Below, in pieces: positions 1 through 17,226 of a DNA stretch of 64,000 bases (its first letter is position 1; every line of letters begins with the position of its first letter). The notes under the pieces are model-generated. The model had not been told where the DNA came from and did no database searches. It saw only the letters and a list, made by a program, of their open reading frames with translations. The stretch comes from a virus (taxonomy: Duplodnaviria; Caudoviricetes), in the IMG/VR virus record IMGVR_UViG_3300033066_001917, positions 96,001 through 160,000 of that record; one strand, given 5' to 3'. Both the position numbers and the translations under genes were made by a program.

Positions 1-61
1 AGCCGTTGCTTCCAGAAAAGCTGCGGGTTTCTTCATTGGGGGAATTACCCCCCAATGAAGA

Positions 62-397
62 TCAGATCGTTGCCAGAGGCAACTTATCTGTTACTTTACG
101 TGTGTGGTCGGATGGACCAAGGACTAGGCAGGTTGTTTGGTCGTCCAAATCCGGCTCCCTAAAAACTGAGCATGGGATCCCCAACTGACAAGCTTTCCCA
201 TGCAGAGTCAAAAGGTGCCCCTCATCTTTAGCATGTAGGACAACGATGGTGTTCGATTTTTGCCGCCACGTGTGGTTGACCTCTGGATGGTCAGCGATGA
301 ACTCATCTCTACCATGGAGGGCCTGGGCCAACTGGGAACCAAAATTCAGGTCCGATCGAACGACCACGTACATCTTGTCGGTGGGTTTGGCCATCAC
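62..397 (-). CDS. pth2: Peptidyl-tRNA hydrolase, Pth2-like
   Basis: KMYVVVRSDL..G..LAQA.H, W...SNTIVVL, FREPDL..Q.T.L.LGP motifs typical of the PTH2 family; start overlaps stop of upstream gene. Confidence 0.85.
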   Translation of the reverse strand: MMAKPTDKMYVVVRSDLNFGSQLAQALHGRDEFIADHPEVNHTWRQKSNTIVVLHAKDEGHLLTLHGKACQLGIPCSVFREPDLDDQTTCLVLGPSDHTRKVTDKLPLATI

Positions 398-834
398 GCC
401 ACCTTTGATGCACGAATTGAGGCTAGCTTGCTCAAGTTCGCTTCACGCTTGAGTCTCCTAGCCTCTTCCCCTGCGGCCATTCTACGGATACGTCGCTCTT
501 TCCTGGCTTCCGTTTCTGGCTCCTTAAACCAGGAATCAATCTGATCCTGAGTAACCTCTACCCCATGGTGAAACAGTAGGGCCCACACCATCCACGAAAG
601 GTGAACGTGTCCGCTTGTCAAGTCGGCCGTGGGTTCTGTTACCCTGTATGCTTTACCCCGAAGATAGGCATAGGCCAAAAACATAACCCTCGAAGCCTGT
701 GCTTCGGAGTAGGGGTGCAGAGCGACATCCCCCCCCACTGGGTACTTGAACCTTTTTCCCGTTCTGTAAATCTCGAGAATGTGGGAAAATTGGCCCTTAG
801 CTTTGATGATGCTTTTGATTTCAATCGTCTTCAT
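394..834 (-). CDS. Hypothetical basic protein co-translated with Pth2 (LAYAYLRGKAY motif)
   Basis: 146-aa ORF, AGGA SD 9 nt upstream, stop overlaps pth2 start. Confidence 0.7.
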   Translation of the reverse strand: MKTIEIKSIIKAKGQFSHILEIYRTGKRFKYPVGGDVALHPYSEAQASRVMFLAYAYLRGKAYRVTEPTADLTSGHVHLSWMVWALLFHHGVEVTQDQIDSWFKEPETEARKERRIRRMAAGEEARRLKREANLSKLASIRASKVA

Positions 835-843
835 GTGAACTAT

Positions 844-933
844 TCCTTGTAATGATGCTGCGACACTTGAACTTGCAAGGCCATCATTACAGGGGGGTCC
901 ACGGGATCGATTGAGCTAGTAGAAGTGGTTCAT
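844..933 (-). promoter_or_regulatory. Putative translational attenuator: uORF MNHFY-TAG-LNRSRGPP plus hairpin masking downstream RBS
   Basis: ATG 933-931, TAG 918-916, RGPP codons 903-892, perfect 10-bp inverted repeat 882-891/848-857 abutting SD at 844-847. Confidence 0.6.
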
Positions 934-971
934 GACTGATGTTACCATCCTGATCATTCGACTGACTTGTG

Positions 972-1556
972 TCAAGTGCAGTTTTCTTCTTCAAGCAAAT
1001 TTGATTGAAGGATAGCCCCTATTGCTTCCACCTCGGTGAATTCCGAGGTGTCATAATTCCCCGATGTTATTCGTGCCACTAGTTCTTTGTTTCTTTTTTC
1101 CGCTTCTTCCAACTCTTGGGTCATCATTTCTGAGGCTGCAGCATGTGCGTCTTTAGAGGATTTAGCTGTGAGAACGTGGTGCCCATATCCATTAAGTAGG
1201 GCTCTCATTCTCCTGCCGCTTTCATTATCAATTGGACATTCCAGGGGGAATCTAAGCTCTCCGTGAATTTGTCGGTGGACGAGCCAGAGGTAACGGGGCT
1301 TCCCTTTTGTGTTGGTTCCGTTTGGAATGCGGATTATGCGGATTCCGGCTCTGTATTCCGCACGTGAAGTGACGTACACCTCCGTGTCCGCGTCAACCCG
1401 TTGGTCGCAGCAATCCTTATATATCTCTTCGGTAAGGTTTTTTTCGTACAATATGGCTTCATTCAAACTATGAAATTTAACCTCATCGAAATTGCGGAAA
1501 ATTCCCATGATATTCCTACCCCTTCCGAGATCATTTTGATTTTCAGATCGTAACAA
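972..1556 (-). CDS. Hypothetical protein
   Basis: 194-aa ORF, no recognised motif; true start may be the internal Met (MGIFRN). Confidence 0.6.
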   Translation of the reverse strand: MLRSENQNDLGRGRNIMGIFRNFDEVKFHSLNEAILYEKNLTEEIYKDCCDQRVDADTEVYVTSRAEYRAGIRIIRIPNGTNTKGKPRYLWLVHRQIHGELRFPLECPIDNESGRRMRALLNGYGHHVLTAKSSKDAHAAASEMMTQELEEAEKRNKELVARITSGNYDTSEFTEVEAIGAILQSNLLEEENCT

Positions 1557-1561
1557 ATGCC

Positions 1562-2380
1562 ATGACTATTAAGATTGAGGCTTGTTATGTCAAAGGGGAC
1601 GAGGGTCAGTGGGTCACAATACCAGCCCCTGAGTTTTCTAGCCCCGAAGACGGGGGGGATGAGGCTTTAGCTCTTCAGGACTATCTCACCGCCTATTCCC
1701 CACCCAGGGAAGCGGTAGCCCTTCGGTTTACATCTGAATCCATACTGGCTTATGTTAGGATCCATCCCACCTATGGTATGGTCCCGAGATTTGAAGGTTA
1801 CGATGTTATCTGGCCCACAAATGAAGAGCTTGGTGGCATATGGACCACCCCACACGTTCTACCGGATGGCCATATCCTCCCGCTCAACTATGTCGAACCG
1901 GCCGAGAGATTCCAGATGGGGGACGATGAAAGCCCCAAGTCTGATCGCCGTGTAGTTGCGGTTGAGGGCCAATTTTTGGCAAAAACCGCAACCACTGTTG
2001 AGCAGTGGAACTGGTATGCAAAAGCAATAAATGACCCCAGTAAGGTGAAGCCAACCACAAACCAAGAGGGTAGAAGTATACTGGACCATCCAGTGACGGA
2101 AGTCAATTTCTGGGATAGTTTGGACTGGGCTGGGTGGGCTGGGTTGATCCTTCCTACTGAAGAGGAGTGGGAACGTGCGGCTCGGGGAAACGATGGCCGT
2201 AAGTATCCGTGGGGCAATGAACGTCCTACCACCGAGCTATGCCATTTCTCTACCCCCGAGGAAGAACAGACGGGTACGGCCTCCGTCTACGCTCACCCAA
2301 AGGGAATGGGTCCTTATGGGCATCTAGATTTGAGTGGAAATACTTGGGAATGGTGCAATTCCCCGTGGCGAAGAGAGTAG
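1562..2380 (+). CDS. FGE-sulfatase (SUMF1)/C-type-lectin-fold protein lacking its C-terminal RGG..GFR segment
   Basis: HPVTEV.FWD...W...LPTEEEWERAARG.DGRKYPWG, PYG..DLSGNTWEW, then stop. Confidence 0.85.
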   Translation: MTIKIEACYVKGDEGQWVTIPAPEFSSPEDGGDEALALQDYLTAYSPPREAVALRFTSESILAYVRIHPTYGMVPRFEGYDVIWPTNEELGGIWTTPHVLPDGHILPLNYVEPAERFQMGDDESPKSDRRVVAVEGQFLAKTATTVEQWNWYAKAINDPSKVKPTTNQEGRSILDHPVTEVNFWDSLDWAGWAGLILPTEEEWERAARGNDGRKYPWGNERPTTELCHFSTPEEEQTGTASVYAHPKGMGPYGHLDLSGNTWEWCNSPWRRE

Positions 2381-2921: not shown

Positions 2922-3299
2922 CCTCTCCGGTTCCATTTTTTTGAGAATGCCTTTGGGGATCTCAACTTTTTTAGGGGCCGGGGGCGGTGGGGGAGGGGGG
3001 TTGGGGGCTATTACAGATGGTATAGGGCCAAGACTGCGAATAGTAGGTGTTCTCTTCCTAGCTTCTTGAATGATTCCCACCATGGCTTGACCGCACGGTT
3101 CACAATAAGAATGGAACTCACCCTCCCAGATGTCTACCTCAACCGTAATCGGATCAGTGTGGCAGGCTCGGCATCGTAATTTGGGGTCTAAAGTGTTTTT
3201 CACGGCTCTCCTGTTACGGTAATACCTATCATGCCGAACCCATGGACGGATCAGGAAAAGAATACACTCAAAAAAGTCCTCGAAACCCGCAAGGCCCAC
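2880..3299 (-). CDS. Hypothetical Zn-ribbon protein with Pro-rich linker
   Basis: CRAC...CEPC, PPPPPPP, C-terminal NLTDLLGM; start uncertain. Confidence 0.5.
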   Translation of the reverse strand: MGLAGFEDFFECILFLIRPWVRHDRYYRNRRAVKNTLDPKLRCRACHTDPITVEVDIWEGEFHSYCEPCGQAMVGIIQEARKRTPTIRSLGPIPSVIAPNPPPPPPPAPKKVEIPKGILKKMEPERLLEAINLTDLLGM

Positions 3300-3944
3300 A
3301 CGCTTGATTGGGTGAAGTTAAAGCAGGCGCTGCCTAAGAAGAGTCGGGATGCTATCTATCGGATGATTGGCGTTCTGGGACTACAGCAACGCAACTGGCC
3401 TGAAAAACACAAAGCCCTGTTGATTTCCTTGTGGGGTCAAGTGACTCCACGACAGCTCCGTAGTAGATTCAAGGACCTCTATTCATGGGACAAAGTTTTG
3501 AAGCAAGCTGACGGGCTTGGTTTATCTAGGGATCTTCCCAGAGGGATGGTTTCTATTCACTCTCTTGGGAAGAACCCTAAGTGGGGTTATGATTACGATC
3601 AAACTCTCCGGGTTCTAAAGTGGTCCGAAGTTCCGGTTCATAACTTCGCCTATGAGGGGAATCGACCGAGATACTGTGTGGACGAATTTGAGGCTCAGGA
3701 AGCGGCTGAGAATTGGGCCCGATCCGAATGCCTTAAAGATGCATCTCTTAGATTGGGTGTTCCCACCTACACAATCAGACGATGGTTGGAAAAGGATGGG
3801 CGGATCCTAAAGAACCGAAAGCATATCAGGTTCTACCCGAATGTATACGACGGTCTGTTGAAGAAGTATGGATCAACCACCCTCGGATCCCCCCAGAAGA
3901 AGAAGCAACAAATCTATCAGGATGGATGGCAAACCGCCGCCTAA
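3231..3944 (+). CDS. Multi-HTH (Myb/SANT-like repeats) DNA-binding protein
   Basis: WTDQEKNTL and WPEKHKALL repeats plus C-terminal ASLRLGVPTYTIRRW HTH. Confidence 0.55.
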   Translation: MPNPWTDQEKNTLKKVLETRKAHTLDWVKLKQALPKKSRDAIYRMIGVLGLQQRNWPEKHKALLISLWGQVTPRQLRSRFKDLYSWDKVLKQADGLGLSRDLPRGMVSIHSLGKNPKWGYDYDQTLRVLKWSEVPVHNFAYEGNRPRYCVDEFEAQEAAENWARSECLKDASLRLGVPTYTIRRWLEKDGRILKNRKHIRFYPNVYDGLLKKYGSTTLGSPQKKKQQIYQDGWQTAA

Positions 3945-6419
3945 CAAGACCAAACCGGCGGAGTAGGCTTGTGGTCCATCAGCCGGTTTGTTTTCCGAAG
4001 CCGTAAGAGCACTTATCACACCATCCGTTCCTGTGGCTAAAACTGGAAGAATAACCGCGTCCGGGATCGATATTTGGAACGGGATGTCAAGGTATCCCCT
4101 GATTTTTCCTAGTACCTCTTGAATTTCAGCCACACGTTGTTCTAGGAAAGAAATGGTTCTCAGAATCCCACTTTCCACTGATTCAGTTCCAGCCGATAGG
4201 GATCCAAGGAACCCATTCACCATTTCCAAGACACGTCCGTTCGCCGCAAGGGGGCCAACACCAACAAGTGGCCTCCATGCCATCCACCCTCCGGGCCTAA
4301 CTCTAGATGTGGTCAAGGATAACACTTCTGCAGCAAGGTTGTAGATGTCAGGGGGGATGACATCCCTCACATACCACGCTCTTTTAGTCCGTATGTCACA
4401 TACCATTGGGGCTGAAGAGAAACCGTCCGGGACATCTCCAAAAGATGACCGGGCAAAGTCATCCCTGGCTTGCAGTTCCATAGCCAAAGGCACAGCAATG
4501 CCCATGTCCCTCCAATACCCAGGAATGCCATAAATGTTTCGGCAAAGAACTGTAGTGTTGGCATCCACTCGGCTGATGCACATGGACTCTAGGATGGTCT
4601 GATTAAGGCCAGGGTTACCCGACGCACCCTCAACCGTGGTATCCGACCATCGCCAATTGATGAGTCGATTGAAAGACTCGGTTCTGGCTCTCAAAAGAGC
4701 CGGTGGGAGATTCCCTTGCACCGCCATGATTTGGTCAGCGAGGGACACAACCTTTGCGTAAAAGTCTCTTGTGAAAGAGTCGGGGCTACTTCCTCTCAAC
4801 CCAAAAAATCGTTGCGGGTTAGTTTCAACTAGGGGAATAAGGTCCTTCCCCGGCCCCTCAAGTCCTGTTGGCTCGTAGACATAAAGTGGAGTTCCAACCA
4901 CTGGTTCCGCTTCCGGGGGTGGGCCGTGGGACACCGGATCGGCCGGTTGGATATCCGAACGACTCAATAGAACAATTCCCAGGGCCGTTTGTAGGGCTGT
5001 TGTATAAAGATTGGTCTCTTGGCTGGGGAACACAACCTTCAAGATCCCACTGGGCGTCCCTTTGGCATCTAAGGTAAATGGAGAGACCAATCCGACTTGT
5101 TCCCGTTCAGCAGAATTTCTTGGCTTCAAGTCCCATTGGAGGGTTTTGAAGTTGTCAGCCGTGACCGTGTCATTCACCGATGTCACCCTCACGTATATCT
5201 CGCGTGGGGCAATGGCATTGTGGGTATCAACCGTGCCATCTTCTAGAATTGGAGCATAGAGAGGCAAGTCATTTTGCGCCAATTCCAAGGTGTAGGTTCC
5301 ACCCACGAGTGCCTGCAAATTGATAGCTTCTCTTGGTACAAAGAACGTTTTTTGGTTGAAATAGATATCACCCTCTTTGGGGAAAGGGTTGTGAAGAGTT
5401 TCCGGGACTGAGGGGTCCCGGAAAAAGAATGCCGGTCGTGCCCCTTCTCTAATTTCAGAACCATTGAAACAGGAGTCCCAGATTACTCCTGGGTCGAGTG
5501 AAATTGAATCATGTCCACCCATGATCCGTAAAATTTGCCCCGTTGTTCCTTCCTTGTATGTTCCTGTCTCATAGGACTGATGGCCCTCGGTGGAACCACC
5601 ACCACCAGCACCTCCGGTTGAGGAAGCCGTTGGAGAAATCCAACCGGCGTAAAAACCTTCTGGAAAGCAAGAAACCTCCACGAGAAATCCCGCCGGGGGA
5701 ATGGTTGGTAGGGGGTTTCCATTGTTGGCATTTGATGGCAAAGTCCAGGAAATGATAGCTGTGTTTCGACCAACCATCTGACTTGTAGCCGCAATAAGTC
5801 TCAGATACGAAGCCTCTCCAGGTCGGGCTGTTTGCGGGGTAGAAGGATAAGTAACGGATAGCCCTGTAGGGGTAGGTAGAGATGTATTCCTACCCGAAAC
5901 CCCAGCCACACCAAGAAGCTGACCAAATGCTTGGCCAGTTCTGCGGAGAGATTGAAATCGGGTCGTGTCAAGAAGTCCATCAACGAAAGAAACGTCAACT
6001 CCGGTATAAACAAAAATACCCAGTACTGTTGTGTTTCCATTAAATTCTGGGCGTCTCGGGTCCCTCCTGTCCGTGAGCCGAGCGATCATTCTCCTCTGAA
6101 ACCCGTCGTATCCACCTTTGAGAGAAGATAAGGGTTCCCCAGAAGCCAAGGCCCCAAAATCTCCCATGTGAGCATACAAACCAGCTTTCCGGAGATCAAT
6201 GAGAGTTCCCTGACACAAATCCACTAACTCATCTAAGATGGCTTTGGTAGGGTTGAGTGTGGGAATTGTGAAGGTTTTTACAATTTGTAGTGTGCTCAAC
6301 CCAATATCTAGGCCCGCATTGACAATCTCCAGGGCCCCGTTTAAGGGCTCTAAGACATCATTGACTTCTGGTAAAGTCAGACGTATTTGAAGTCCACCCC
6401 AGGATCCAATTTCTGGCAT
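3873..6419 (-). CDS. Probable virion structural protein (848 aa)
   Basis: Long ORF tightly coupled to the giant structural gene; G/P/T-rich. Confidence 0.6.
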   Translation of the reverse strand: MPEIGSWGGLQIRLTLPEVNDVLEPLNGALEIVNAGLDIGLSTLQIVKTFTIPTLNPTKAILDELVDLCQGTLIDLRKAGLYAHMGDFGALASGEPLSSLKGGYDGFQRRMIARLTDRRDPRRPEFNGNTTVLGIFVYTGVDVSFVDGLLDTTRFQSLRRTGQAFGQLLGVAGVSGRNTSLPTPTGLSVTYPSTPQTARPGEASYLRLIAATSQMVGRNTAIISWTLPSNANNGNPLPTIPPAGFLVEVSCFPEGFYAGWISPTASSTGGAGGGGSTEGHQSYETGTYKEGTTGQILRIMGGHDSISLDPGVIWDSCFNGSEIREGARPAFFFRDPSVPETLHNPFPKEGDIYFNQKTFFVPREAINLQALVGGTYTLELAQNDLPLYAPILEDGTVDTHNAIAPREIYVRVTSVNDTVTADNFKTLQWDLKPRNSAEREQVGLVSPFTLDAKGTPSGILKVVFPSQETNLYTTALQTALGIVLLSRSDIQPADPVSHGPPPEAEPVVGTPLYVYEPTGLEGPGKDLIPLVETNPQRFFGLRGSSPDSFTRDFYAKVVSLADQIMAVQGNLPPALLRARTESFNRLINWRWSDTTVEGASGNPGLNQTILESMCISRVDANTTVLCRNIYGIPGYWRDMGIAVPLAMELQARDDFARSSFGDVPDGFSSAPMVCDIRTKRAWYVRDVIPPDIYNLAAEVLSLTTSRVRPGGWMAWRPLVGVGPLAANGRVLEMVNGFLGSLSAGTESVESGILRTISFLEQRVAEIQEVLGKIRGYLDIPFQISIPDAVILPVLATGTDGVISALTASENKPADGPQAYSAGLVLLGGGLPSILIDLLLLLLGGSEGG

Positions 6420-6637
6420 TACTTACCCCCACCTCTCCGTATCCTATCAAGCTTTTCCCGTTCTCTTTCCAAAAGCTCAAGGTCGGATTCCAACATCGTC
6501 TCAAGCTCTTTTCTCAAGTATAGGATCAGTTCTCTCTGCTTTGCGAGAGCCGGTAAGTCCCCCAAATTGGTAGGGCCACTGCGTTTCCAATCAATGGAAC
6601 CGGATCTCAATTTTTCTAACAGTTCTTCTCGGGTCAT
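6419..6637 (-). CDS. Small coiled-coil protein
   Basis: 72 aa, overlapping start/stop with both neighbours. Confidence 0.65.
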   Translation of the reverse strand: MTREELLEKLRSGSIDWKRSGPTNLGDLPALAKQRELILYLRKELETMLESDLELLEREREKLDRIRRGGGK

Positions 6638-9600
6638 CGGGTAGACCTAATCGCAAGAGCTTTTTGTTTAAGCTGTTTGATCCTACCCTGTAATGCGGAA
6701 TCGAATCTCCTTATGGCTTCAAGGGTTCCCGTTACCCGGTGGGATCTTGTTGAAATCCAAGCGTCCCTTGTTGCTCTCAATTTGTCCGTCTGGTCTAGAG
6801 ATATCGTGATCCGGTTAGGTAGGACTGGTTTTCCAACCCCATTTTCAAAATCAGCGTAGGGGTCCGTGGAACCATATGGCGGGTGCTCGTGGTCAAGGCT
6901 GATGTCACCCAGCCAGAACCTACGATCTAGAATCGAAAGGCACAAGGCGTTATTGGAGAATGGAGTTACAAGGGTTCGTCCGAATACAGATGCAATCAAT
7001 CCGTTGGACATGATCCCCCATCCCGTATCAAAGTCCGGCAAATAACCCAATTTGGAGATATGTTCTTCAGACTGGAAAACTCTGTATCCACCACCGTGAT
7101 TAATTTCCGAAATGTTTCTCATGACATCAATCCAGGACAGGGTTCTTTCCCTGGTCGAGAATATGAGGTTGATCGTCTCATCCGACAGCTTTGTGGATGG
7201 CCGCAAGATTCTGTAGGAGAACGGGGCAACCGACAACCATGTACCCATGTAACTGTTAAAAGCATCGGGGAAAGCAGTCGGACGAAGGTCCATCTGACCC
7301 TCCAACCCGTTTCCGGAACCCGATAGATTAGATCCATGAACCGTCGGGTAGATGGCATAGGCAGCATTGGATGGTCCGAATACAATATCCGGGTTGCCGC
7401 GGTCTCCAGCAAGATTGTTCTCCTCCGCCGTTACCGTTAGAACACCGTTGGACTTAGCCGCCACCCTATAAAATCCTCTATTATCATCGCATTTTCGCGG
7501 TGTACCCGGGGTGTAATCAGCCCCTCGCGATGACACCCCAAGGTCTCCGGTTGGGGGCTGACCTTGCTCCGGTATTGGGGCCGTTCCTGTAGGACCAGCC
7601 AAGGATCCTGCAGGATCAACCACAACCAAGTCTCCCATTTCAACGTTGGTGTAGGTAACGGTCGGATCCGTATCCGTCAGCTTGTTGACCGATTGGTCAT
7701 ATGCGGTTTGAGGATCAGCATTAGGGACATAGGTGACTTTCCCTCCCTGTTGAGTGGTGTAATTGCATCGTCGGTCTAGAATCACCCGATCTGTGGCAAG
7801 GTCCGCAAGTTCGGCGACCGATTGCTCGTGGGGGACAGGAGGAGTCCTTAATATAACTTCGAATCTGGTGCCAGGAGCAATGGTTTCTTCACATGCAACC
7901 AGTGTAAGAATTTGGTTTTGGACTCCGACGATTTCGGATGTTGTTAGGGTAGTCCCGGATGGGCTAATGAATCTGATTGAGTCCCCCGGGTTGATATTCA
8001 CCCTCTTATCCGTAAAATCCCCCAATTGGGTAGCCTTGCCTCCTCCAATTGGAAATGGTAGCTGGTGGCCATCCACGGGCTCTGCCACCAACGTGCACAC
8101 TCCGTTCGTTGTTGTTACGGATGCTACGACCCCTCTTCTGATTTCATAAGCATAACGGAGGTCTCCGAATGGTGACGTAAGGTCCTCATTTCTGGTGCCC
8201 CATCTTCTTGGCCTTCTTACTTCGGCTTGAGCTATCTCCAAAAAGCTTTGGAGCGGTGGGATAATGCTCGAATCAAAGTATGTTGAAACCGATCTGGCTC
8301 CTACGGCATTGGCCGCTAGGGAGTGGGTGGCATCCACGACATTAACATTCACTGACCCAAGATTGTTACCCACCCTTGGGAACGAAGGCTCCACATAGAT
8401 ACCAGCAGCAGCACTATAATTCGCCACCCATCTGTCCCCTGGAAGAAAGCAACGGGCCCCTGCGGGAATAAAAGCACCTACGGTATGGATGTCATCCCAG
8501 TTGAAACCGGAGAAATCAATGACTCCAGGTATGTGATCGTATACCGGGTCATCTTCCGCTGTGAGTGTAGTGCTGGGTACCTTTACTTTTTCGTAGATGG
8601 ATAGTACCGTTGCTGTACCTTCAAGGTTGCCGTTGGTAGTGGCATCCAAAGTGACGTTAGATACCCCCCTGGATCCAACAACCGACCGAAACCCAAAGAA
8701 AGACCTATTTCCTGGCGCTGCTGTTGCGTTGGTGTATCCAGAATAGTTCTCTGGAATCCCTACGGCTTGCGGTGAAACCGGAGCTAAAGCCATACCACTC
8801 ACGGGCACTCCCACTTGGGCTGCGGCAATAAAAACACCTGAAGAAATAACGTTTCCCAAACCGTCCCGGAAGTCCGTTAGATTGGCAAATGTGGTGTCCC
8901 CCGCCCCCGAAATAGAGCCATATGCCGCACTGTAAATCGCCGTAGCATAAAGTGCGGAGTTGGTAGAGTCCAGGAGGTCCGGCCTCACAATTAGAAAAAC
9001 ACGACCTGTTGGTTTGAAGACTCTCGTGTAAGTAAGGGGAACGCCGCCAAAAGTTTTGACAAAGGGTACCTCCTGATTCGCTGATATGGTGAGGTTGTAG
9101 GGGGCTAGTGTTGTGATTGAAACAACACTAGGGAACTCTATACCTAACCAGTTATTGTCTCCCGTGTTGGCGGAGAGAGTGGCTCTTCTCTCATCTGTCC
9201 CATGTGTCGCTTTGATAACGTTACGAATGCAGTATGTCCCGGCCTTACCCGAAGCCGTAGGTATTGCACTTGCCCCATCCGTAAGGGAGCGAATTACCAG
9301 AAGATCCCCGGGAAGGACGTTTGATACATCTCCAGATAGGGTCGCTTGTGGGGTGAACCTATTTAGCCTGGGTGATAGGGTGGGTGGATTGAAGGCTTCA
9401 TCGCACACAACTTCACCATTGAAAATTGGATCCGTTGCAGTCTGCCGGGCCGTTGGCAGTGCCTTGAAAGTTATGTTAGATGCTTCAATTGGGATATTTT
9501 CATACCCCTCCCAAGCCATGACTTTTAGCGATCCAGTGCCTCCGAAGAACCTCCCAACGCCGTAAACGGAAGGGATTACAGAGCTTCTTGCTTTGAATGT

Positions 9601-12600
9601 GAATGGAACACCACCGTTTGTATTGGTATTTGAGTTGACAGTTATATCCCCTGTAACATATGAGGATGTAAGGGGATCCCAGAAAGAAGCTGTGTTTGAT
9701 GTGATGTTTAGCTGACACTCTACTGGGTCCAGACCAGAAGTAAGAGCACCACGGGGCTGGGCCGTTTTCACATCAATGGGTAGGGTTACGGTTAGCCTAT
9801 CCGCGGCAATGGTGCATGTCCTAGACCCAACACCACCAACAGACAAGGCAGAATCATGGTAGCCTCCGGTTCGTGTGATTCCAGGGGAGGGGTTTGTTGG
9901 GTTGAATGGGGTGAAGTCGAAGAAAGGATTTGCCGTTCTCACCTCAATCACTTGAGGGTGGAACCTTAAACCCCCGGCATTCACGGCTTGTTGGCTAGCT
10001 CCGTTATCCCCGGATACCGTGAAGGATGAAGCCAGGATGTTTGCCCCTGTTCCGGAGTTTGTGAGAACAACTGTTGTGTTTACTTGAAAGTGGCCGTCAG
10101 TGCGGACAAGTTTGATGGACAATCTTGTCCCAACATCACATTGAGAAAGAAAATCATTATATCCACCAACTGGGATGGGTAGGGAACCACCCCCAGTCCC
10201 ATTATCAAGGACAAAATCAGCCGGTGGTGTGGACTCAAAATCAAACGTCGTGATGACGATTCCAACCGTGGTGGTATCTTCGGTCACAACGACACCACTG
10301 ACTCCGCCCCCAAACCACGTTTGAAGATTATCTATTGTCAAATCTACAGCCGATGCCAATAAGGTAGGGGCTACAAATCTTGGGGGCTCTATGACGGAAG
10401 GTGTTCCGTGGGTCACCAACCCAACAGTCATGATTCCCGACGAGCCGGGGGGGGTGGTTACCTCGGGCTGTACCAGAACTACATCATAGGGCCGCAGGGA
10501 ACCCACCCCCCTGTGCCCGGGGGACGGATAAACAGTTGCTGATGGTTGTAGATCCGTGTCGGTCAAAAGGGCGCTTGGGTATGCCGTGTCATAAGGATCA
10601 ATCGCCCCGTCATTGTCGCCTATTTCATCCGGGTAGAGGGCTTCGACAATGTAAGTGTCTACACGTGCAGGGGTCGCTGGTGGTGGGGTTACCGAATCGC
10701 CATACAAGATAGCATCCCCTGGACCAGCAAGGCTTCCCAGCATCTCAATTTCCGATGGTGTCAGAGACGTGTAGGGGAGCCTGTAATCCCCGTTGTCTTT
10801 TTTGGACTCACCCCTCAAGGCCGGTATGTTCAAAGGCTCTACCTGACCGTTTTGGAAGGCAACAACACCCTCTACCGTTCCCATTGGTGGAGGTGGCTTC
10901 TGTCCCGTTATTTCTTTGAGTCCGAATAGGGTTGGGTCACCGAACGACGGGAGGGTTATGTCCAGAATGTCTCCTGTTTTGGGCGAGTACCCAACGTCTG
11001 TGCCTATCCTGTACCCCGGTAGGGCGGTAAGCAAAGTTGCGAGTTCGGAAGCCGTGGGTGGGTCCGAAAGTGTGGGAGATGAAGCACTGTTGGGTATGAC
11101 TAATAAAGTATCCCCCCGTACCGGATCATAGGGAATTCCCGTAGTTTCACCCGTCATAACAACGAGGGTGGATGGATCCGTGATGGGTACGTCGGCCCCC
11201 CCAATGGTCTTTCCCTTGAAAGTAACGGCTGTCCCCTTATATATAGAGTTTACATAAACCCCACCATATCGGCTTGTCCCATCCACATCTAATGTGGTTC
11301 CGGTGTAAGCCAAAGCCCGAATCGATCCATCTGGAAGACCTATGGCTAAAGCATCCCCAGGACGAAAAGGCGGAGTGTGGAGATCAACGCATCCGGTAGA
11401 GATATCATCAACCCCTGTAGGAGTTGGTCCCAAGCTTTGAGATGCAAGTCGCGAAGTATCCGGCAATCCACCGAGGACAGGAAATTCCGCGAAGGGTACT
11501 TGGGCCAAAAGTACGGTCGGGATACCGGAAGTAGCGGCTTCAAGCGAGGCAAATCCTGTTGGGCTATAGTCCCACACCCTGGCCCTGGCGGATCTGTCCT
11601 TAAGGGACAATCCCAGGACGTTCCCCACCACACCAAGAGTTGGGTTTTCCAGTTTCCCGATAGGTTGTCCCGTGGTGGATTGGAGGTCTACGGATAGACT
11701 TGGGGCGAACAGGTTGAGGGTCAGTTTCCCAGCACTATATACCCCATAATTCCCACCCTCGGCACCGATACCTGGACCTAAAGTCGTGAAAACATTGGTC
11801 CGTTCCGGGAAAATCCTAGAGAAAGGTGATGGTGTCGCCAGAGGTAGGAAAGAGCCATATCCTTTGATCCGATATGTGATGAAACCACTCAAAGATCGGC
11901 TTATCCGCTCTCTTGCTACAAGAGCCACGTCATCCAGGTCATTCTGAATTTTCCCACTCTGGAGACCCATGATGGAGGCAAAAGAAGAAGGGTCCTGGAA
12001 TGACCCGTCAGGTCTTCCTTTTCCATCTACGGATGCACCAATAGGACTGATGATGGGGTCCTCTGGGGTCAGCCGAATAGTTGCTTCTCCCGCGCGGAGT
12101 CCGGACCACACTTCTACCCACAGGTTTCTTGGGTTGATAGCTCCTGTCAGTGGATCCTCGTGGCCCGGTGGGACCCACCGATTACCCGGACCTACGCGGA
12201 ATCGGAACTTACCATCCGAGTCCCCAATGGGGTTGCCATCAACAACCTCAAGTATTTGCTCAAAAGATGTGCAGATACCATTGTAGAAAGCCAAAAATGC
12301 TCTGGCAACCCTATCCCTATTGACAAGCACTACCCTTTCTGAGTTCAAGGATTGATTCCCGTGGTCATCTCCGGAGGGTGGGATTGGATCCCATGATATG
12401 ACACTGGATACGGCTGTCTCCACGTAGTCCGCAAAGGGTAAAATCCGAGCATAAAAGCTATCCGGAGAATCATAGCTATATGTCCCCAAGAGGTTCCTTC
12501 CGGGATACGTAGGGAGGGTTATAGCCCCAAACGAAGCTGCAACTCTGGGATTTAGGGTCTGTCCCTCGAATACTTTTGGTTTAAGGGTTCTCCTATCCGT

Positions 12601-15600
12601 TCGGAACAGTCGGATGGTTTGATTCAGGTTTAATCCGGTGATCAGAGTCAGATTTCCCGTGTCCGGGTCTAAATTGAAGTCCCTACCCTCCAAGAGGGTT
12701 TCCCCGGGTAGTGATCCTTCCCACCTAACGGCAATATAGTTTTCCGTGGCAACAAGAGAACTGGATCCAAGAATAGTTTTTGCCCCATCCGGGTAAATTG
12801 GCCTCGTGGAAATCCTCAGACTAGATGCTGCCATTCCGGACGACCAAGAACCAGAGCGAATCACGGATGAAGCCAGGGTGATAGTGGTGGTTCTCCCATC
12901 CGCAGCGAGAGATGCCCCAGAGATTACATAGGGCACCCCAAAAGCCTCTAAGATATGACCCGCGATTGCATACCTCGTGAAATCTCCGGAGAGAACAACA
13001 CTGGTAGTACCGACCAGAAGAGGCTCGAATTGTGGGACTGATGTGACCCCATAGGCCATTGGGAATGTTGCCAGGAATCCAGAATCCACGTTAGGGATGG
13101 ACACACCATCCACTGAAGGGGTGATGGCCCGATCCGTCACGAAGCATATTTGGTCCTCACCGGGGGCGAGGGATCCCGCACCGTTAGGGGGCGGAGGAAA
13201 AATAGTTACAACGGTGTTGGCACCATTTAGGGTGACCGTTTTGAGGTAGGTTGCAAATCCCCCAAGCCGAATCATTCTCCCGGGTGCCATTTCAGCCCTT
13301 CGATCCCCGGAGAAGGTCAAAATGCTTTGATTTCTTCCGATGGAGAAAGGAGGTCGCCACACTGGTGGTTGTGAAACCGTGTAAGTTGTTTCCCCACCAA
13401 TGGTTTCCAGAACGGCATAACTTATCGTCACCACCGTGCCTTCGGCTATGGGGTCCTGGAAACTAATAGTAGATGCCTCGAAGTTCACGGATGACGCCGA
13501 GGGGACGCCGTATGATGTCATCCTCGCCCCAGCATACACTCGGGGTTCGACTGAAACATCCAACTCTCTACCCATGGGGTTGAAGCTATATACTTGCTCC
13601 GACACCCGTGTAGCCACTTCCCGACGAATGAAAGAAGGGAGGACTTCCGTTACAATCGCGGGTTGGCCATTTACAACAATTTTTTCCCCTGTCGAATCTT
13701 TGGCTTTTGTGTAGGTGGCTTCTACAAGTCTTCCGGCGGGTACAGGTTGACGGAAAGTAAATGAACCAAGGATGGGGTTGATTGAGCCATCCAACCCAGG
13801 AACCATTCGAGTTGCGAGGTAGATTTTACTCCCCGTCCTAGTTGCTGTAGCTGCTAACGAAATAGCTACTTCTCCCGTAGTGGGGATTATCTCACCTCTG
13901 CCATCAGGGATCAAAGCTGGGGGTAGGATCCCCTCCACATAGAACACCTCCGACCCCTCGTAATCTCGAAGAACGGCGGCACCAAATTTTAGGTTTCCAG
14001 CACCTGAACCACTCTGGATATACTCCACAGTGGAACCCGGATCCGGGGAGAAAGTAGAAACAGGAATGAGGTCTACCCCATGAGTGTAGGTTTTTGATCC
14101 TACTCGAACGGAGAAAGAAGCCGATGCCAGTCTATCCCCCGTAGGTACGGACAGGGAATCATTTGCTATAGGACCCAAATTTCTTTGGATCAACTTAGTC
14201 AAAGTCACCCACAAAGGAGGGGTTGATGCGATTTTTGCTCTAACTTCGGCGCCGTCCTGAAGAGTTCCCACGGGTTGAAGTGACCCACCGGCCAAACCAA
14301 TCTGTTGAAGAACCTCAATCGAAAATGGATCCTCTTGCAGATGATTGAATTCCCTGTACGTTACATCAGCCAGGATTGATGGATCGATCTCGCCTGGGGA
14401 TACTCCTTCTCTGAGTTCCCAACTTTTGTATGACCCACCGTTGCTTTCTGTGAATGATGGGGTCACCGAAAGGGTGTGTGAGCCAACACCTATTACGGTT
14501 CGATAGGCTCCACCAATACCCAGGAGGTCCCCCACTTCGGCAACGCCAACGAAAGTTGCGCTCTCATCCGTAAAAGTAGGGCCTACACCATATTCTCCTC
14601 TCCCCCCGCTCAAAATGAGACCCCCAACTCTATCAATCAGGGTTGCGGATCCGCCGGACAATAGATAATCGGTTCCTTGATTGAGGTGAACATAAGCACC
14701 ACCCCCTTCGGCCACTTTTAGGTATCCCCCAACAGCGTCATAAAGGGTGTCCCCGATCAAACCGGCGTTCTCGAAGTCAATAGCGTTGATGGTGGTTGTT
14801 ACATTGCCTCCAAAAGAAGCGCGGGCAATCCAACCAACGCGCTTTGTCGGGAATAGATAGGTAGCATTGTCAAATTGACGAAGATAGGACCCCCCGGAAA
14901 CTCTAAAATACACCCCAAAATCGTAACCCGGCAAATCTTCCCTTGGTACCTGATTCAGGAAAACATACGGAGATTGTTGGATGGGTCCTAGATTTTCATC
15001 CCTTAGAGTTGAGATGATTTGAGTGTCCGGAGTTTCTTCCGCACAATGAAGGCCAAATGTGGGCCCGCCTTCTGGACACCAATTACTGTCGTTTGAGTCA
15101 TAAGTGCCCTCCGTCACCGCATAGGACCCAGGGATGAACCCCAACGCTTCACATCCGGAAAGAGCAATTTGCCCCCCCGTGCCGAACCCTATAGATGCAC
15201 GGGTAATACCTTGAATTACGAGTTTGTTGTCTACAACAGAACAAGACCCAGGTGCACTGGCAATGGCGATGTTAAGAGACAGAGCTACGGCGTCAGCCGT
15301 GTGTGTCCCACCACCGAGAACTACGGCAGACCAGTTAACCGTAGTGCTCCCCAGGAGAAATGTGAGCGTTTCAGTTCCCAGTAATGTGTAGGGTCCCGTT
15401 TTACAACTAACTATTTCGATTCCCTCGGGATAGGTGGAGGGGACAAAGTCAGCTTGTGTGAAATATACAAGGTTCCCTTTGAGGGCATTCCCTACATCGG
15501 ATCCAAATACCACCTTACTCCCTAAGGATCCGTGTTTCTCAAGGGATACATACACAGTCCCCTCCGGCATACCATATGTTTCAGATGGTAGGTCTTCCTC

Positions 15601-17226
15601 AAACCCAACACCAATCAAATTGGTAAATCTCCCACCTTTTCCGAAAAGAATTGTGTCTCCGGTACCCGCGGTGAGTTTCCGCACAAGACCCGACCCGTTC
15701 GGACGGGACGTGGGTTGAGTTGAGGTATTAGGTACCACTCCTGTCCCGTCCGGAACCACTACAATGCCCGAAACACCTGTTCCTGGAAGTAATGTGGCAT
15801 CCGGTATATAGAGGTTGACGCCATCCTCATAGACCACCGGAGTACCACCATCACCCACCAATGCTACGGGAGCTATGGTTGGTTGTGGGTGACGGTTGAG
15901 TGTCACCCCATCGTAAAATACCTTTGCACCTAAATACAGGGGGTCAAAGTAAGGGTTTGGTGTGTTATGTGTGCCGGGGTTGGAACGGCTCAAATCCTGG
16001 GCATTGAATTTCAATTTCCCCGTCGTTCGAGCTACACCTACGGATCCAGATGGCACGCTAAGAGCTGCAAGGCTAGTCTCATTGAGAACTAGAATAACCC
16101 TCAGGTAAGCTCTCTGTCCAACCTTGATGAGCGGATACTCCCCATACTGTGGTATTGGGGACAGAAACAAATCTGTGTTAGTGTAGGGGCCTACTTCTCC
16201 AGTAACCCCGTAGAAACTGTCTTGAGATGACCATATAGTCATCCCCTCATAAGAGGACACAAATCCTGGGTTCCATACCAGAGATCCACCCACACCAACC
16301 ACGCCCGCCAGAGGTGGTGTGGTTGTGTTGAAATTATAGTCAGAGTTTGCTTCCTCATCACTAACCACTAAGATCCCGGAGTAGGGTCCAGTAGTGCGAA
16401 AAACTACTGGATAGCTGGTTTCATTTGGAGACGAACCCAGTCGGATTAATGCGGACCCAGATGGTGTTCCGGGGAGATAACCCCCAATTGGTGTATTGGG
16501 AGCCTGGATAATGTAGGCCGATGATGGCTTCATGAGCCCAACATTTATTGGCCCACCACCTTTGAGCGGTTCCCATCGTTGGCTGGATCCATTCCAGGAG
16601 AATCTCTTACGTGTGTCGTTCCTAGACCACCAGAATTTTGACCGCTGGGCGTAGTATCTAACACTTACCGTGTCTCCGCGGAGCGAGGATATTGCTACGG
16701 GGGATCCAACGGGTACATATACCGCTGAACGCACTGTGGGCGTGTCTTGCAGTGTGAGTTTTCTTGTGGGTCCGTCCGCAATAACATCCACACCCACGGC
16801 TAAAGTAACATCTGTGGTCGTACCCCCCCTTCGAAAAACCACGCTAGTGAAAGCGCCAATGGTTTCATCTCCGAGAATGGTGACAACGTTAGATCCATCG
16901 GTTCTGGTGCCCGTGTTGCTGGTAGGGTCCAGAACGGTCATCCCCCTGTTCGGAATATCCGACATCCCATCTTTGGCCCACGACCCATCCTCAATCGTGG
17001 TTAGGGACCCAGAGTTTGCAGCCCATACCAAATATCCGCCTGTGCCAGTAAGTGATGTCCGGACTCGATATCTCTCGGCCGCAACCTCAATTAGTATGGG
17101 TTGCCCTGAAGGGTAGCCCGAGGGGGCCCCCCCAACATACTTTGGGACATTAGCATCCGCAGTCATGCCAGAGGGATTGGAAGGGGAAGATTTGGCCCCG
17201 TCCAGGACGAACCCGTCAAAACTCAT
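6634..17226 (-). CDS. Giant virion structural protein (3530 aa; baseplate/tail-associated)
   Basis: 10.6-kb uninterrupted ORF, G/T/S/P/V-rich beta-type composition typical of jumbo-phage structural proteins. Confidence 0.7.
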   Translation of the reverse strand: MSFDGFVLDGAKSSPSNPSGMTADANVPKYVGGAPSGYPSGQPILIEVAAERYRVRTSLTGTGGYLVWAANSGSLTTIEDGSWAKDGMSDIPNRGMTVLDPTSNTGTRTDGSNVVTILGDETIGAFTSVVFRRGGTTTDVTLAVGVDVIADGPTRKLTLQDTPTVRSAVYVPVGSPVAISSLRGDTVSVRYYAQRSKFWWSRNDTRKRFSWNGSSQRWEPLKGGGPINVGLMKPSSAYIIQAPNTPIGGYLPGTPSGSALIRLGSSPNETSYPVVFRTTGPYSGILVVSDEEANSDYNFNTTTPPLAGVVGVGGSLVWNPGFVSSYEGMTIWSSQDSFYGVTGEVGPYTNTDLFLSPIPQYGEYPLIKVGQRAYLRVILVLNETSLAALSVPSGSVGVARTTGKLKFNAQDLSRSNPGTHNTPNPYFDPLYLGAKVFYDGVTLNRHPQPTIAPVALVGDGGTPVVYEDGVNLYIPDATLLPGTGVSGIVVVPDGTGVVPNTSTQPTSRPNGSGLVRKLTAGTGDTILFGKGGRFTNLIGVGFEEDLPSETYGMPEGTVYVSLEKHGSLGSKVVFGSDVGNALKGNLVYFTQADFVPSTYPEGIEIVSCKTGPYTLLGTETLTFLLGSTTVNWSAVVLGGGTHTADAVALSLNIAIASAPGSCSVVDNKLVIQGITRASIGFGTGGQIALSGCEALGFIPGSYAVTEGTYDSNDSNWCPEGGPTFGLHCAEETPDTQIISTLRDENLGPIQQSPYVFLNQVPREDLPGYDFGVYFRVSGGSYLRQFDNATYLFPTKRVGWIARASFGGNVTTTINAIDFENAGLIGDTLYDAVGGYLKVAEGGGAYVHLNQGTDYLLSGGSATLIDRVGGLILSGGRGEYGVGPTFTDESATFVGVAEVGDLLGIGGAYRTVIGVGSHTLSVTPSFTESNGGSYKSWELREGVSPGEIDPSILADVTYREFNHLQEDPFSIEVLQQIGLAGGSLQPVGTLQDGAEVRAKIASTPPLWVTLTKLIQRNLGPIANDSLSVPTGDRLASASFSVRVGSKTYTHGVDLIPVSTFSPDPGSTVEYIQSGSGAGNLKFGAAVLRDYEGSEVFYVEGILPPALIPDGRGEIIPTTGEVAISLAATATRTGSKIYLATRMVPGLDGSINPILGSFTFRQPVPAGRLVEATYTKAKDSTGEKIVVNGQPAIVTEVLPSFIRREVATRVSEQVYSFNPMGRELDVSVEPRVYAGARMTSYGVPSASSVNFEASTISFQDPIAEGTVVTISYAVLETIGGETTYTVSQPPVWRPPFSIGRNQSILTFSGDRRAEMAPGRMIRLGGFATYLKTVTLNGANTVVTIFPPPPNGAGSLAPGEDQICFVTDRAITPSVDGVSIPNVDSGFLATFPMAYGVTSVPQFEPLLVGTTSVVLSGDFTRYAIAGHILEAFGVPYVISGASLAADGRTTTITLASSVIRSGSWSSGMAASSLRISTRPIYPDGAKTILGSSSLVATENYIAVRWEGSLPGETLLEGRDFNLDPDTGNLTLITGLNLNQTIRLFRTDRRTLKPKVFEGQTLNPRVAASFGAITLPTYPGRNLLGTYSYDSPDSFYARILPFADYVETAVSSVISWDPIPPSGDDHGNQSLNSERVVLVNRDRVARAFLAFYNGICTSFEQILEVVDGNPIGDSDGKFRFRVGPGNRWVPPGHEDPLTGAINPRNLWVEVWSGLRAGEATIRLTPEDPIISPIGASVDGKGRPDGSFQDPSSFASIMGLQSGKIQNDLDDVALVARERISRSLSGFITYRIKGYGSFLPLATPSPFSRIFPERTNVFTTLGPGIGAEGGNYGVYSAGKLTLNLFAPSLSVDLQSTTGQPIGKLENPTLGVVGNVLGLSLKDRSARARVWDYSPTGFASLEAATSGIPTVLLAQVPFAEFPVLGGLPDTSRLASQSLGPTPTGVDDISTGCVDLHTPPFRPGDALAIGLPDGSIRALAYTGTTLDVDGTSRYGGVYVNSIYKGTAVTFKGKTIGGADVPITDPSTLVVMTGETTGIPYDPVRGDTLLVIPNSASSPTLSDPPTASELATLLTALPGYRIGTDVGYSPKTGDILDITLPSFGDPTLFGLKEITGQKPPPPMGTVEGVVAFQNGQVEPLNIPALRGESKKDNGDYRLPYTSLTPSEIEMLGSLAGPGDAILYGDSVTPPPATPARVDTYIVEALYPDEIGDNDGAIDPYDTAYPSALLTDTDLQPSATVYPSPGHRGVGSLRPYDVVLVQPEVTTPPGSSGIMTVGLVTHGTPSVIEPPRFVAPTLLASAVDLTIDNLQTWFGGGVSGVVVTEDTTTVGIVITTFDFESTPPADFVLDNGTGGGSLPIPVGGYNDFLSQCDVGTRLSIKLVRTDGHFQVNTTVVLTNSGTGANILASSFTVSGDNGASQQAVNAGGLRFHPQVIEVRTANPFFDFTPFNPTNPSPGITRTGGYHDSALSVGGVGSRTCTIAADRLTVTLPIDVKTAQPRGALTSGLDPVECQLNITSNTASFWDPLTSSYVTGDITVNSNTNTNGGVPFTFKARSSVIPSVYGVGRFFGGTGSLKVMAWEGYENIPIEASNITFKALPTARQTATDPIFNGEVVCDEAFNPPTLSPRLNRFTPQATLSGDVSNVLPGDLLVIRSLTDGASAIPTASGKAGTYCIRNVIKATHGTDERRATLSANTGDNNWLGIEFPSVVSITTLAPYNLTISANQEVPFVKTFGGVPLTYTRVFKPTGRVFLIVRPDLLDSTNSALYATAIYSAAYGSISGAGDTTFANLTDFRDGLGNVISSGVFIAAAQVGVPVSGMALAPVSPQAVGIPENYSGYTNATAAPGNRSFFGFRSVVGSRGVSNVTLDATTNGNLEGTATVLSIYEKVKVPSTTLTAEDDPVYDHIPGVIDFSGFNWDDIHTVGAFIPAGARCFLPGDRWVANYSAAAGIYVEPSFPRVGNNLGSVNVNVVDATHSLAANAVGARSVSTYFDSSIIPPLQSFLEIAQAEVRRPRRWGTRNEDLTSPFGDLRYAYEIRRGVVASVTTTNGVCTLVAEPVDGHQLPFPIGGGKATQLGDFTDKRVNINPGDSIRFISPSGTTLTTSEIVGVQNQILTLVACEETIAPGTRFEVILRTPPVPHEQSVAELADLATDRVILDRRCNYTTQQGGKVTYVPNADPQTAYDQSVNKLTDTDPTVTYTNVEMGDLVVVDPAGSLAGPTGTAPIPEQGQPPTGDLGVSSRGADYTPGTPRKCDDNRGFYRVAAKSNGVLTVTAEENNLAGDRGNPDIVFGPSNAAYAIYPTVHGSNLSGSGNGLEGQMDLRPTAFPDAFNSYMGTWLSVAPFSYRILRPSTKLSDETINLIFSTRERTLSWIDVMRNISEINHGGGYRVFQSEEHISKLGYLPDFDTGWGIMSNGLIASVFGRTLVTPFSNNALCLSILDRRFWLGDISLDHEHPPYGSTDPYADFENGVGKPVLPNRITISLDQTDKLRATRDAWISTRSHRVTGTLEAIRRFDSALQGRIKQLKQKALAIRSTR

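Follow-up and report, generated by a model that had tools for sequence, protein, structure and literature searches.

The window considered here is a 64,000-nucleotide stretch, bases 96001 to 160000 of a 200,245-bp virus record (IMG/VR record IMGVR_UViG_3300033066_001917), and the element under study is a leader on its minus strand that precedes a gene for a 146-aa protein and, behind it, a gene for a Pth2-like protein. The leader contains a short upstream open reading frame (uORF) closed by UAG, a coding stretch behind that stop that ends in Arg-Gly-Pro-Pro (RGPP), and a hairpin that abuts the Shine-Dalgarno (SD) sequence of the 146-aa gene (Table 1). Along the minus strand, the leader precedes the 146-aa gene and the Pth2-like gene, and these are followed, outside the window, by an AAA ATPase gene (415 aa), a 74-aa ORF, tRNA(CUA), and a gene for a helix-turn-helix (HTH) protein. 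The tRNA(CUA) gene, at genome c[94376,94449], is 1.6 kb downstream, co-oriented, and part of the same gene string. An earlier note on this DNA, made from its letters alone, had described the uORF MNHFY-UAG-LNRS-RGPP, a 10-bp stem, an AGGA, and the ATG of the 146-aa gene, and all of these were found on the minus strand where the note had placed them. The analysis presented below suggests that the leader is probably a switch acting on translation, under the control of an amber-suppressor tRNA that the phage itself encodes.

Table 1. Features of the leader and of the genes and hairpin that follow it (window positions)
Feature	Position	Strand	Details
Promoter-like TTGACA (975-970), 17 nt, CAGGAT (952-947)	947-975	-	Read from the sequence; putative
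uORF ATG AAC CAC TTC TAC TAG = M-N-H-F-Y-UAG	916-933	-	ATG 933-931, TAG 918-916
Post-stop CTC AAT CGA TCC CGT GGA CCC CCC = L-N-R-S-R-G-P-P	892-915	-	RGPP at 903-892
P1 5' strand GUGGAC	897-902	-	Minimum free energy (MFE) fold; pairs with GUUCAC (840-835) just before the main AUG
P2 hairpin, 10 bp, perfect	848-891	-	Arms TGTAATGATG (891-882) / CATCATTACA (857-848)
SD sequence AAGGA (848-844), spacer, GUUCAC (840-835, P1 3' strand)	835-848	-	Abuts the start codon
146-aa protein	394-834	-	ATG 834, TGA 396-394; phage family, motif LAYxxLRGxxY...EPTA...W..PE
Pth2-like protein, 110 aa	62-394	-	ATG 394-392; start overlaps the 146-aa stop (TGATG)
Perfect 13-bp hairpin	30-61	-	TCTTCATTGGGGG / CCCCCAATGAAGA, 6-nt loop; directly 3' of the Pth2-like stop, ahead of the AAA ATPase gene

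The uORF MNHFY-UAG occurs once in the window and once in the genome, and scanning of both revealed no further copies of the leader motif. A second RGPP behind a TAG (five codons behind it), at genome position 83235 on the minus strand, was rejected as a candidate; it has neither a uORF nor a downstream gene and looks like chance. RGPP itself occurs 10 times over the six frames of the 200-kb genome and in none of the long ORFs. In the MFE fold, a single long helix with interruptions takes in both the SD sequence and the start codon, and the RSRGPP-coding sequence supplies its 5' strand. The P2 stem lengthens to 13 nt with one mismatch, and in this extended stem the CC of the Pro codons pairs with the GG of the SD sequence, in agreement with the suggestion of the earlier note that these codons can pair there. 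The P2 loop (24 nt) holds the conserved GGCCUUGC and AGUUCAA, and ATAGTTCAC lies between AGGA (847-844) and the ATG (834) of the 146-aa ORF. The local fold z-score is only modest (-1.87), 60 inverted repeats (10 nt or longer, within 40 nt) occur in the window, and a 10-bp hairpin alone is not rare; as judged by the comparisons below, the significance of the leader comes from conservation and not from the hairpin itself. An Rfam search of the leader returned chance-level matches only, and the Rfam T-box covariance model had no match at E values up to 10 in positions 700 to 1100. Direct, T-box-like binding of tRNA was rejected on this lack of an Rfam match and on the discriminator bases of the tRNAs, which are C or G while UGGA in the leader is invariant.

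The promoter-like element scores under the threshold of a consensus scan. The same arrangement, TTGACA-N17-yAGGwT at equal distance, is kept in six related loci (L001, L002, L004, L007, L116, and L118; related loci and their leaders are denoted here by L numbers). CAGGAT lies 13 nt from the uORF ATG, and the element, if it acts as a promoter, would put the transcript start some 6 to 7 nt ahead of the uORF AUG and make the uORF near-leaderless. The GTAA-N8-ATG that the earlier note had regarded as the uORF's own element is incidental; it is better read as the stretch between the promoter-like element and the start, and not as a ribosome-binding site.

Next, the conservation of the leader was examined. 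A profile search with the 146-aa family gave 164 representatives at E<1e-3, in two subfamilies, and loci were gathered by exact look-up, motif scans, and related-locus search. DNA-pattern scans of viral and metagenome collections produced mostly chance matches, with L020, L044, and L082 the only true ones. Five proteins are 53 to 55% identical to the 146-aa protein, and their loci keep the gene order: a divergent FGE-sulfatase gene, a 149-aa gene, PTH2, and AAA, with tRNA(CUA) further along. In these five close relatives, conservation is much higher over the upstream 130 nt than in the proteins, and it covers TTGACA-N17-yAGGwT, ATGAACCACTTCTwCTAG, CTy nnn CGw TCC CGT GGA CCy CCy, and the hairpin, whose arms differ among the close relatives with pairing retained; within the RSRGPP block, every difference is at a third codon position.

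Across the wider family, a short uORF, a stop, and then RGPP were found in 32 of 34 non-identical leaders upstream of family genes, and the leaders with this conserved design span very divergent phages with GC contents of about 30 to 68%. This is the arrangement that the earlier note had expected ahead of homologues of the LAYxxLRG and Pth2 pair. The uORF takes the form MNHF[YFM]-UAG in L001-L008, L116, and L118, and M[MI][HP]FY-UGA in L120-L122. Among the 32 leaders, the Arg of RGPP is encoded by CGT (19 leaders), CGA (6), CGC (3), AGG (2), AGA (1), or CGG (1) and the Gly by GGA (26), GGT (4), or GGG (2), and all four Pro codons are in use. Because all six Arg codons are used while R-G-P-P stays, this codon usage shows the peptide to be the object of selection. 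From the end of RGPP to the main AUG there are 51 to 66 nt in 31 of the 32 leaders, the exception (L144) having a mis-set start. In L125 (about 3270-3360), MPMT-UGA-A is followed by R-S-P-P in the +1 frame, in place of RGPP; its 7-kb locus contains no tRNA.

In the window, as the earlier note had pointed out, uORF and main ORF share a frame (99 nt), but this part of the design is not conserved (the frame is 0, 1, or 2 across relatives) and is incidental. The read-through frame leads into the main ORF in the window, L001, and L020 but not in L004 or L007, where the two frames differ, and in L002 it meets a TAA two codons ahead of the main AUG. N-terminal extension of the main protein by recoding was rejected as a conserved outcome on this variation of frame.

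In the second subfamily (L126-L147), a shared CCTGTACA was observed about 40 to 60 nt upstream of the uORFs, about 17 to 18 nt before a TAnnnT hexamer that stands just ahead of the uORF ATG. Together, CCTGTACA and TAnnnT may form a phage-specific promoter. The uORFs of these loci begin 0 to 13 nt past the hexamer, so that their mRNAs would be leaderless or nearly so.

The stop of each leader, and the frame of RGPP relative to it, were then compared with the tRNA genes of the same locus. Twelve leaders, including that of the window, have UAG with RGPP in frame 0, and tRNA(CUA) is present in all 11 loci of this class whose sequence extends far enough, with either a 7-nt loop or a 7-nt loop and a mismatched closing pair (L001 was left out of this count; its contig stops short of the tRNA position). 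Three leaders (L120-L122) have UGA with RGPP in frame 0, and these go with tRNA(UCA) with symmetric loops. Fifteen leaders have UGA-A with RGPP in the +1 frame, and each of their loci has one or two tRNAs whose anticodon loop, with the best stem pairing, is asymmetric and 8 nt long (N-Y-U-UCA-A-N) and contains a UUCA complementary to UGAA. Decoding of the four bases UGAA as one step would land the ribosome exactly in the RGPP frame, and the 8-nt-loop tRNAs are candidate natural quadruplet-decoding tRNAs. In L124 (leader at about 3240-3365), the uORF contains AUA-A (ATG TCG ATA ATG TGA), with no matching stop and with RGPP in the +1 frame, and the tRNA of the locus (about 5108-5181) has the 8-nt loop GGUUAUGU (UAU/UUAU); this locus may be a sense-codon version of quadruplet decoding. 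No locus was found in which leader class and tRNA are mismatched.

Homologous leader peptides cross these classes, as in ...YPQMILREH-UAG (L146) and ...YPQMILREF-UGAA (L141). On a maximum-likelihood tree of the 146-aa proteins, about five changes of class are needed; well-supported branches force three of these, and the match was kept each time. Because the roughly five changes all keep the match, the association of tRNA and leader is not one inherited accident. This covariation of stop and frame with tRNA is the strongest evidence for translation of the leader and for decoding of its stop by the tRNA, and it also indicates that reaching RGPP is the point of the design.

Further observations on these loci concern the loops and the sequence past the stop. 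The 8-nt loops are AUUUCAAC and ACUUCAAG in L020, L126-L139, L141, L143, and L144 (for example, L133:5755-5828 and 5834-5908, in locus orientation). In the UGA-A class (L132, L133, L020, and others), directly after UGAAUGCAA, there is a small hairpin 7 nt past the stop (GCGG-UUGAA-CCGC, GCGC-UUAAA-GCGC, or GCGG-AUAAA-CCGC), the stem of which covaries while the encoded residues change. This hairpin may be a recoding stimulator.

Genome-wide reassignment of TAG (code 15-like) was rejected. Long in-frame TAG junctions are no commoner than TGA or TAA ones, a count that covers long junctions only, and none of eight read-through translations has a Pfam domain across the TAG. Because the genome otherwise uses the standard code, the leader is the only evident target of tRNA(CUA).

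To characterize masking of the start site, duplexes between the RGPP-coding 18-mer and the 24-mer running from the SD sequence to the AUG were evaluated. The mean energy was -15.1 kcal/mol, versus -7.3 kcal/mol for shuffled sequences, and every one of the 28 leaders paired more strongly than its shuffles (Wilcoxon, 7e-9), the window giving -10.0 kcal/mol against -4.8 ± 1.6 kcal/mol. By its complementarity, GGA-CCU-CC is effectively an anti-SD sequence, and nucleotides as well as amino acids would be held constant because the RGPP codons pair with the SD sequence. RNAalifold analysis of five close leaders paired the start codon with the Arg and Ser codons. In the same alignment, the GUGGAC/GUYCAC helix (columns 36-41/99-104) is invariant but for a G.U to G-C change in L004 and L007, and six P2 pairs are changed on both sides yet remain paired among the five relatives; the covarying hairpin that the earlier note had proposed to look for is present. 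Masking was also simulated with a partition-function model in which the ribosome footprint was forced to be single-stranded. In the window, the SD sequence had a modelled unpaired fraction of 0.56 both in the free RNA and when a ribosome was terminating at UAG; the fraction was 0.78 when the ribosome was stalled and its P site held the first Pro codon. On this model, the unmasking step is plausible but not secure.

RGPP has been described as the most robust arrest sequence among RAPP-like motifs, tolerating varied N-terminal contexts (Fujiwara et al., EMBO J 2025, PMC12992588). Its arrest is not relieved by EF-P and sets in when the P site holds the third codon and the A site the fourth; the tetrapeptide is also the most avoided one in bacterial proteomes and is found in uORFs upstream of diverse genes (PMC12992588). 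The comparison of loci described above yields a conserved peptide behind a stop, complementarity between RGPP codons and SD sequence, and a match of leader to tRNA, and these, with the covariation of the helix, support the sequence of read-through, stalling at RGPP, and opening of the SD sequence that the earlier note had proposed. In the absence of suppression, RF1 would end translation at UAG and the downstream RNA would stay folded, with the R-S-R-G-P-P codons paired to the SD sequence, spacer, and start codon (P1) and flanked by the 10-bp P2. In this state the 146-aa gene and the overlapping Pth2-like gene would be poorly translated. When tRNA(CUA) decodes the UAG, the ribosome, having initiated on a putatively near-leaderless uORF, would translate eight more codons and arrest on Arg-Gly-Pro-Pro when the first Pro codon occupies the P site. 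The stalled ribosome would cover the P1 5' strand and the P2 5' arm, and the SD sequence and AUG, about 57 nt downstream, would be freed for other ribosomes. Read-through would in this way turn the operon on, and operon output would report that the suppressor tRNA is made, charged, and active. The design could serve as a timer, as a check on tRNA processing and charging in the infected cell, as feedback on suppression, or in handling peptidyl-tRNA derived from recoding.

Several observations weigh against this switch. The uORF has no SD sequence of its own, and its translation hinges on the putative promoter and on near-leaderless initiation. The nascent chain at the stall would be M-N-H-F-Y-X-L-N-R-S-R-G-P, and 13 residues are a very short context for RGPP arrest. 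Over 28 leaders the masking simulation gave a weak effect (p 0.056), with several leaders, especially of the UGA-A class, showing no gain in SD accessibility. Finally, in L002, L116, L118, and L120 the stop of the read-through frame lies at the main AUG or beside it, which would also fit simple coupling by termination and reinitiation.

This last observation leads to a reading in which read-through acts without stable arrest: the ribosome unwinds the helix and then terminates near the main AUG and reinitiates or, in the window, makes an N-terminally extended protein, with RGPP only slowing it. The read-through stop is placed accordingly in some relatives, either two codons before the AUG (L002 and L116) or overlapping it as AUGA (L118 and L120), and in the window, L001, and L020 read-through is in frame with the main ORF. 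Such coupling is unlikely, however, given that the frame to the main ORF takes all three values across relatives and that L082 and L147 have a stop right after RGPP, about 52 to 54 nt before the AUG, with the sequence past RGPP not conserved; mere passage of ribosomes also leaves unexplained why the strongest known arrest tetrapeptide is so strictly kept. Somewhat less probable is a negative or homeostatic device, in which stalling shuts the operon or marks the mRNA for cleavage or rescue and so limits the suppressor tRNA, or in which the leader is a harmless sink for the tRNA. The presence of the tRNA gene within the same gene string, the stall-rescue components encoded by the genome (tmRNA and a Pth2-like protein), and the leaders without modelled gain in SD accessibility are consistent with such a device. 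The RGPP codons are nevertheless the anti-SD, anti-start strand in 28 of 28 leaders, where a ribosome must expose the SD sequence, and the constant spacing of 51 to 66 nt leaves the initiation site clear of a stalled ribosome.

The earlier note had proposed a sensor of translation-termination stress, and this is a fair description of the logic of the switch, but the match of stop, frame, and tRNA makes a dedicated phage tRNA the likely trigger. In the general form of that proposal, any failure of RF1 (depletion, inhibition, or host suppressors) would trigger the leader, and the nearby tRNA would be unrelated. RF1 competes with the tRNA at UAG and must modulate the switch, and the UAG-C context is retained in close relatives. 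The general form is improbable all the same, since stop, frame, and quadruplet register track the tRNA in every locus, even within one protein clade, and failed termination alone cannot reach an RGPP in the +1 frame; a specific phage tRNA is the most likely trigger. It is more improbable still that the leader is an untranslated cis-regulatory RNA, or a DNA operator, to which a protein such as the 146-aa or HTH protein binds, with uORF, UAG, and RGPP as by-products. The structured 5' region and the identity of CGTTCCCGTGGACCTCC in AT-rich L082 and GC-rich L020 would suit an element of this kind, whereas the use of six Arg codons, including AGG and AGA, with R-G-P-P unchanged, the dependence of the RGPP frame on tRNA loop size, and the lack of an Rfam match would not, and the nucleotide conservation is accounted for by pairing with the SD sequence. 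As for an ordinary 5' untranslated hairpin with a fortuitous ATG...TAG and RGPP, the abundance of 10-bp hairpins in the window and the low z-score given above are what chance would produce. The recurrence of the design in leaders of very divergent phages, and the near absence of RGPP from the rest of the genome, make chance scarcely credible, and the comparative data already refute it.

The two encoded proteins were characterized by searches and structure prediction. The 146-aa protein has no Pfam or PHROG match. Its AF2 model (pLDDT 93.8) is mostly helical with a long C-terminal helix, and fold searches with the model were uninformative (Foldseek against PDB, best E 1.5; VIA-align, Z at most 4.2; ESM Atlas, TM < 0.4 with no feature matches). 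A PTH2-like gene comes directly behind the family gene at all loci inspected. In the window the two genes, which the earlier note had called coupled, overlap as TGATG, and the second product matches Pfam PF01981 (E 5e-12, 46.4 bits with a cut-off of 23, profile positions 2-114 of 115). The Pth2-like protein also matches the solved Pth2 structure 2zv3 (E 4e-9), human Bit1 (1q7s), and 1wn2, and it can be aligned with archaeal and human Pth2 from end to end. When aligned by HMMER to 2zv3 and 1q7s, the phage proteins are two residues short in the G-K-G-K loop and have Glu opposite the Asp of R-D-A; the assignment of catalytic residues follows the Sulfolobus enzyme. Because the two G-K-G-K loop residues are missing, hydrolase activity should not be assumed, and the phage proteins may differ from standard peptidyl-tRNA hydrolases. 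Prediction of a complex between the 146-aa and Pth2-like proteins scored 0.01, which counts neither for nor against an interaction. In the GC-rich relative L020, the Pth2-like gene is followed (11355-11696, minus strand) by a gene for a protein that by eye resembles CsaA/EMAP tRNA-binding domains and that would add a further tRNA-related gene to the module.

The surroundings of the leader were also surveyed. A 194-aa ORF (972-1556, minus strand) lies between the leader and an FGE-sulfatase-like gene (1562-2380, plus strand), and its stop overlaps the promoter-like TTGACA. It has no Pfam or PHROG match and resembles an insertion, the leader directly facing the FGE-sulfatase gene in all close relatives. 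The whole record contains 37 tRNA genes and one tmRNA (genome 39905-40278), the tag of which is ANDNDVPAFAAAA. Twenty-three tRNA genes, all on the minus strand with small ORFs in between, lie in window positions 34851-57189, and a single ORF of 3530 aa occupies 6634-17226 on the minus strand.

Large standard-code phages often carry suppressor tRNAs of unexplained purpose, and the present locus offers a conserved, testable target for them. It is conceivable, though we hold it with less confidence than the switch itself, that orphan suppressor tRNAs of phages, including the UGAA-reading tRNAs with 8-nt loops, are largely regulatory keys, each paired with a leader lock (stop or quadruplet, RGPP arrest, and SD unmasking) to form a virus-encoded checkpoint or timer that works by programmed recoding. 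Each lock would then allow the 146-aa family protein and the Pth2-like enzyme to be made only while its tRNA is processed, charged, and decoding, and quadruplet decoding would have a natural use. A literature search found no paper on an arrest motif behind a stop, on a leader matched to a phage suppressor tRNA, or on natural UGAA-reading phage tRNAs. If true, the switch would be, as far as that search reaches, the first natural arrest peptide gated by stop suppression, and the design as it stands in sister lineages implies that 8-nt-loop tRNAs decode the quadruplet UGAA in nature. The design would tie a phage Pth2-like enzyme and a widespread uncharacterized family to recoding. Its parts are small (a leader of about 100 nt and one tRNA), portable to reporter or cell-free systems, and relevant to orthogonal translation switches.

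The proposed switch has features in common with several known systems. It is like the RAPP-like arrest peptides (ApdA, ApdP, and ApcA; SecM, with RAGP; CruR; and the Streptomyces RAPP/RGPP uORFs; PMC12992588, PMC10987492) in having a core R-[A/G]-P-[P/G] in a small co-oriented upstream ORF, with the stall site located in one strand of the structure by which the downstream ribosome-binding site is hidden. Unlike those ORFs, the present one is interrupted, by UAG at 918-916 in the window and by UAG, UGA, or a +1 change in relatives. Its 13-residue chain has no signal or membrane segment, so that release by Sec or YidC pulling is impossible; the input would be a tRNA rather than protein export, and the element is found in a phage. 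As in the trp and his attenuators and the T-box, a short 5' leader would read the availability of one tRNA and change RNA structure over downstream genes. The attenuators, however, respond to a shortage of a charged tRNA for a sense codon and work through transcription termination, and the T-box binds uncharged tRNA directly, whereas the signal here would be the presence of a stop-decoding tRNA. Suppressor tRNAs are also carried by phages that recode stop codons (bioRxiv 10.1101/2021.08.26.457843), which have many in-frame stops in late genes; over the long junctions examined, this genome shows no recoded genes. The nearest engineered analogue is the synthetic amber-suppression switch (PMC6412442), in which expression is likewise conditional on a UAG-reading tRNA; there the UAG lies inside the target gene, while here it lies in the leader and the regulated proteins have no suppressed codon. 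Finally, prfB, encoding RF2, likewise uses an early in-frame stop to sense the factor that decodes it, and the UGA-A relatives would share its +1 shift. In prfB, a release factor is sensed by P-site slippage on CUU-U with an internal SD sequence, and the product is RF2 itself; at the locus described here, a suppressor tRNA (or one with an 8-nt loop) would be sensed, and arrest would unmask a separate downstream gene.

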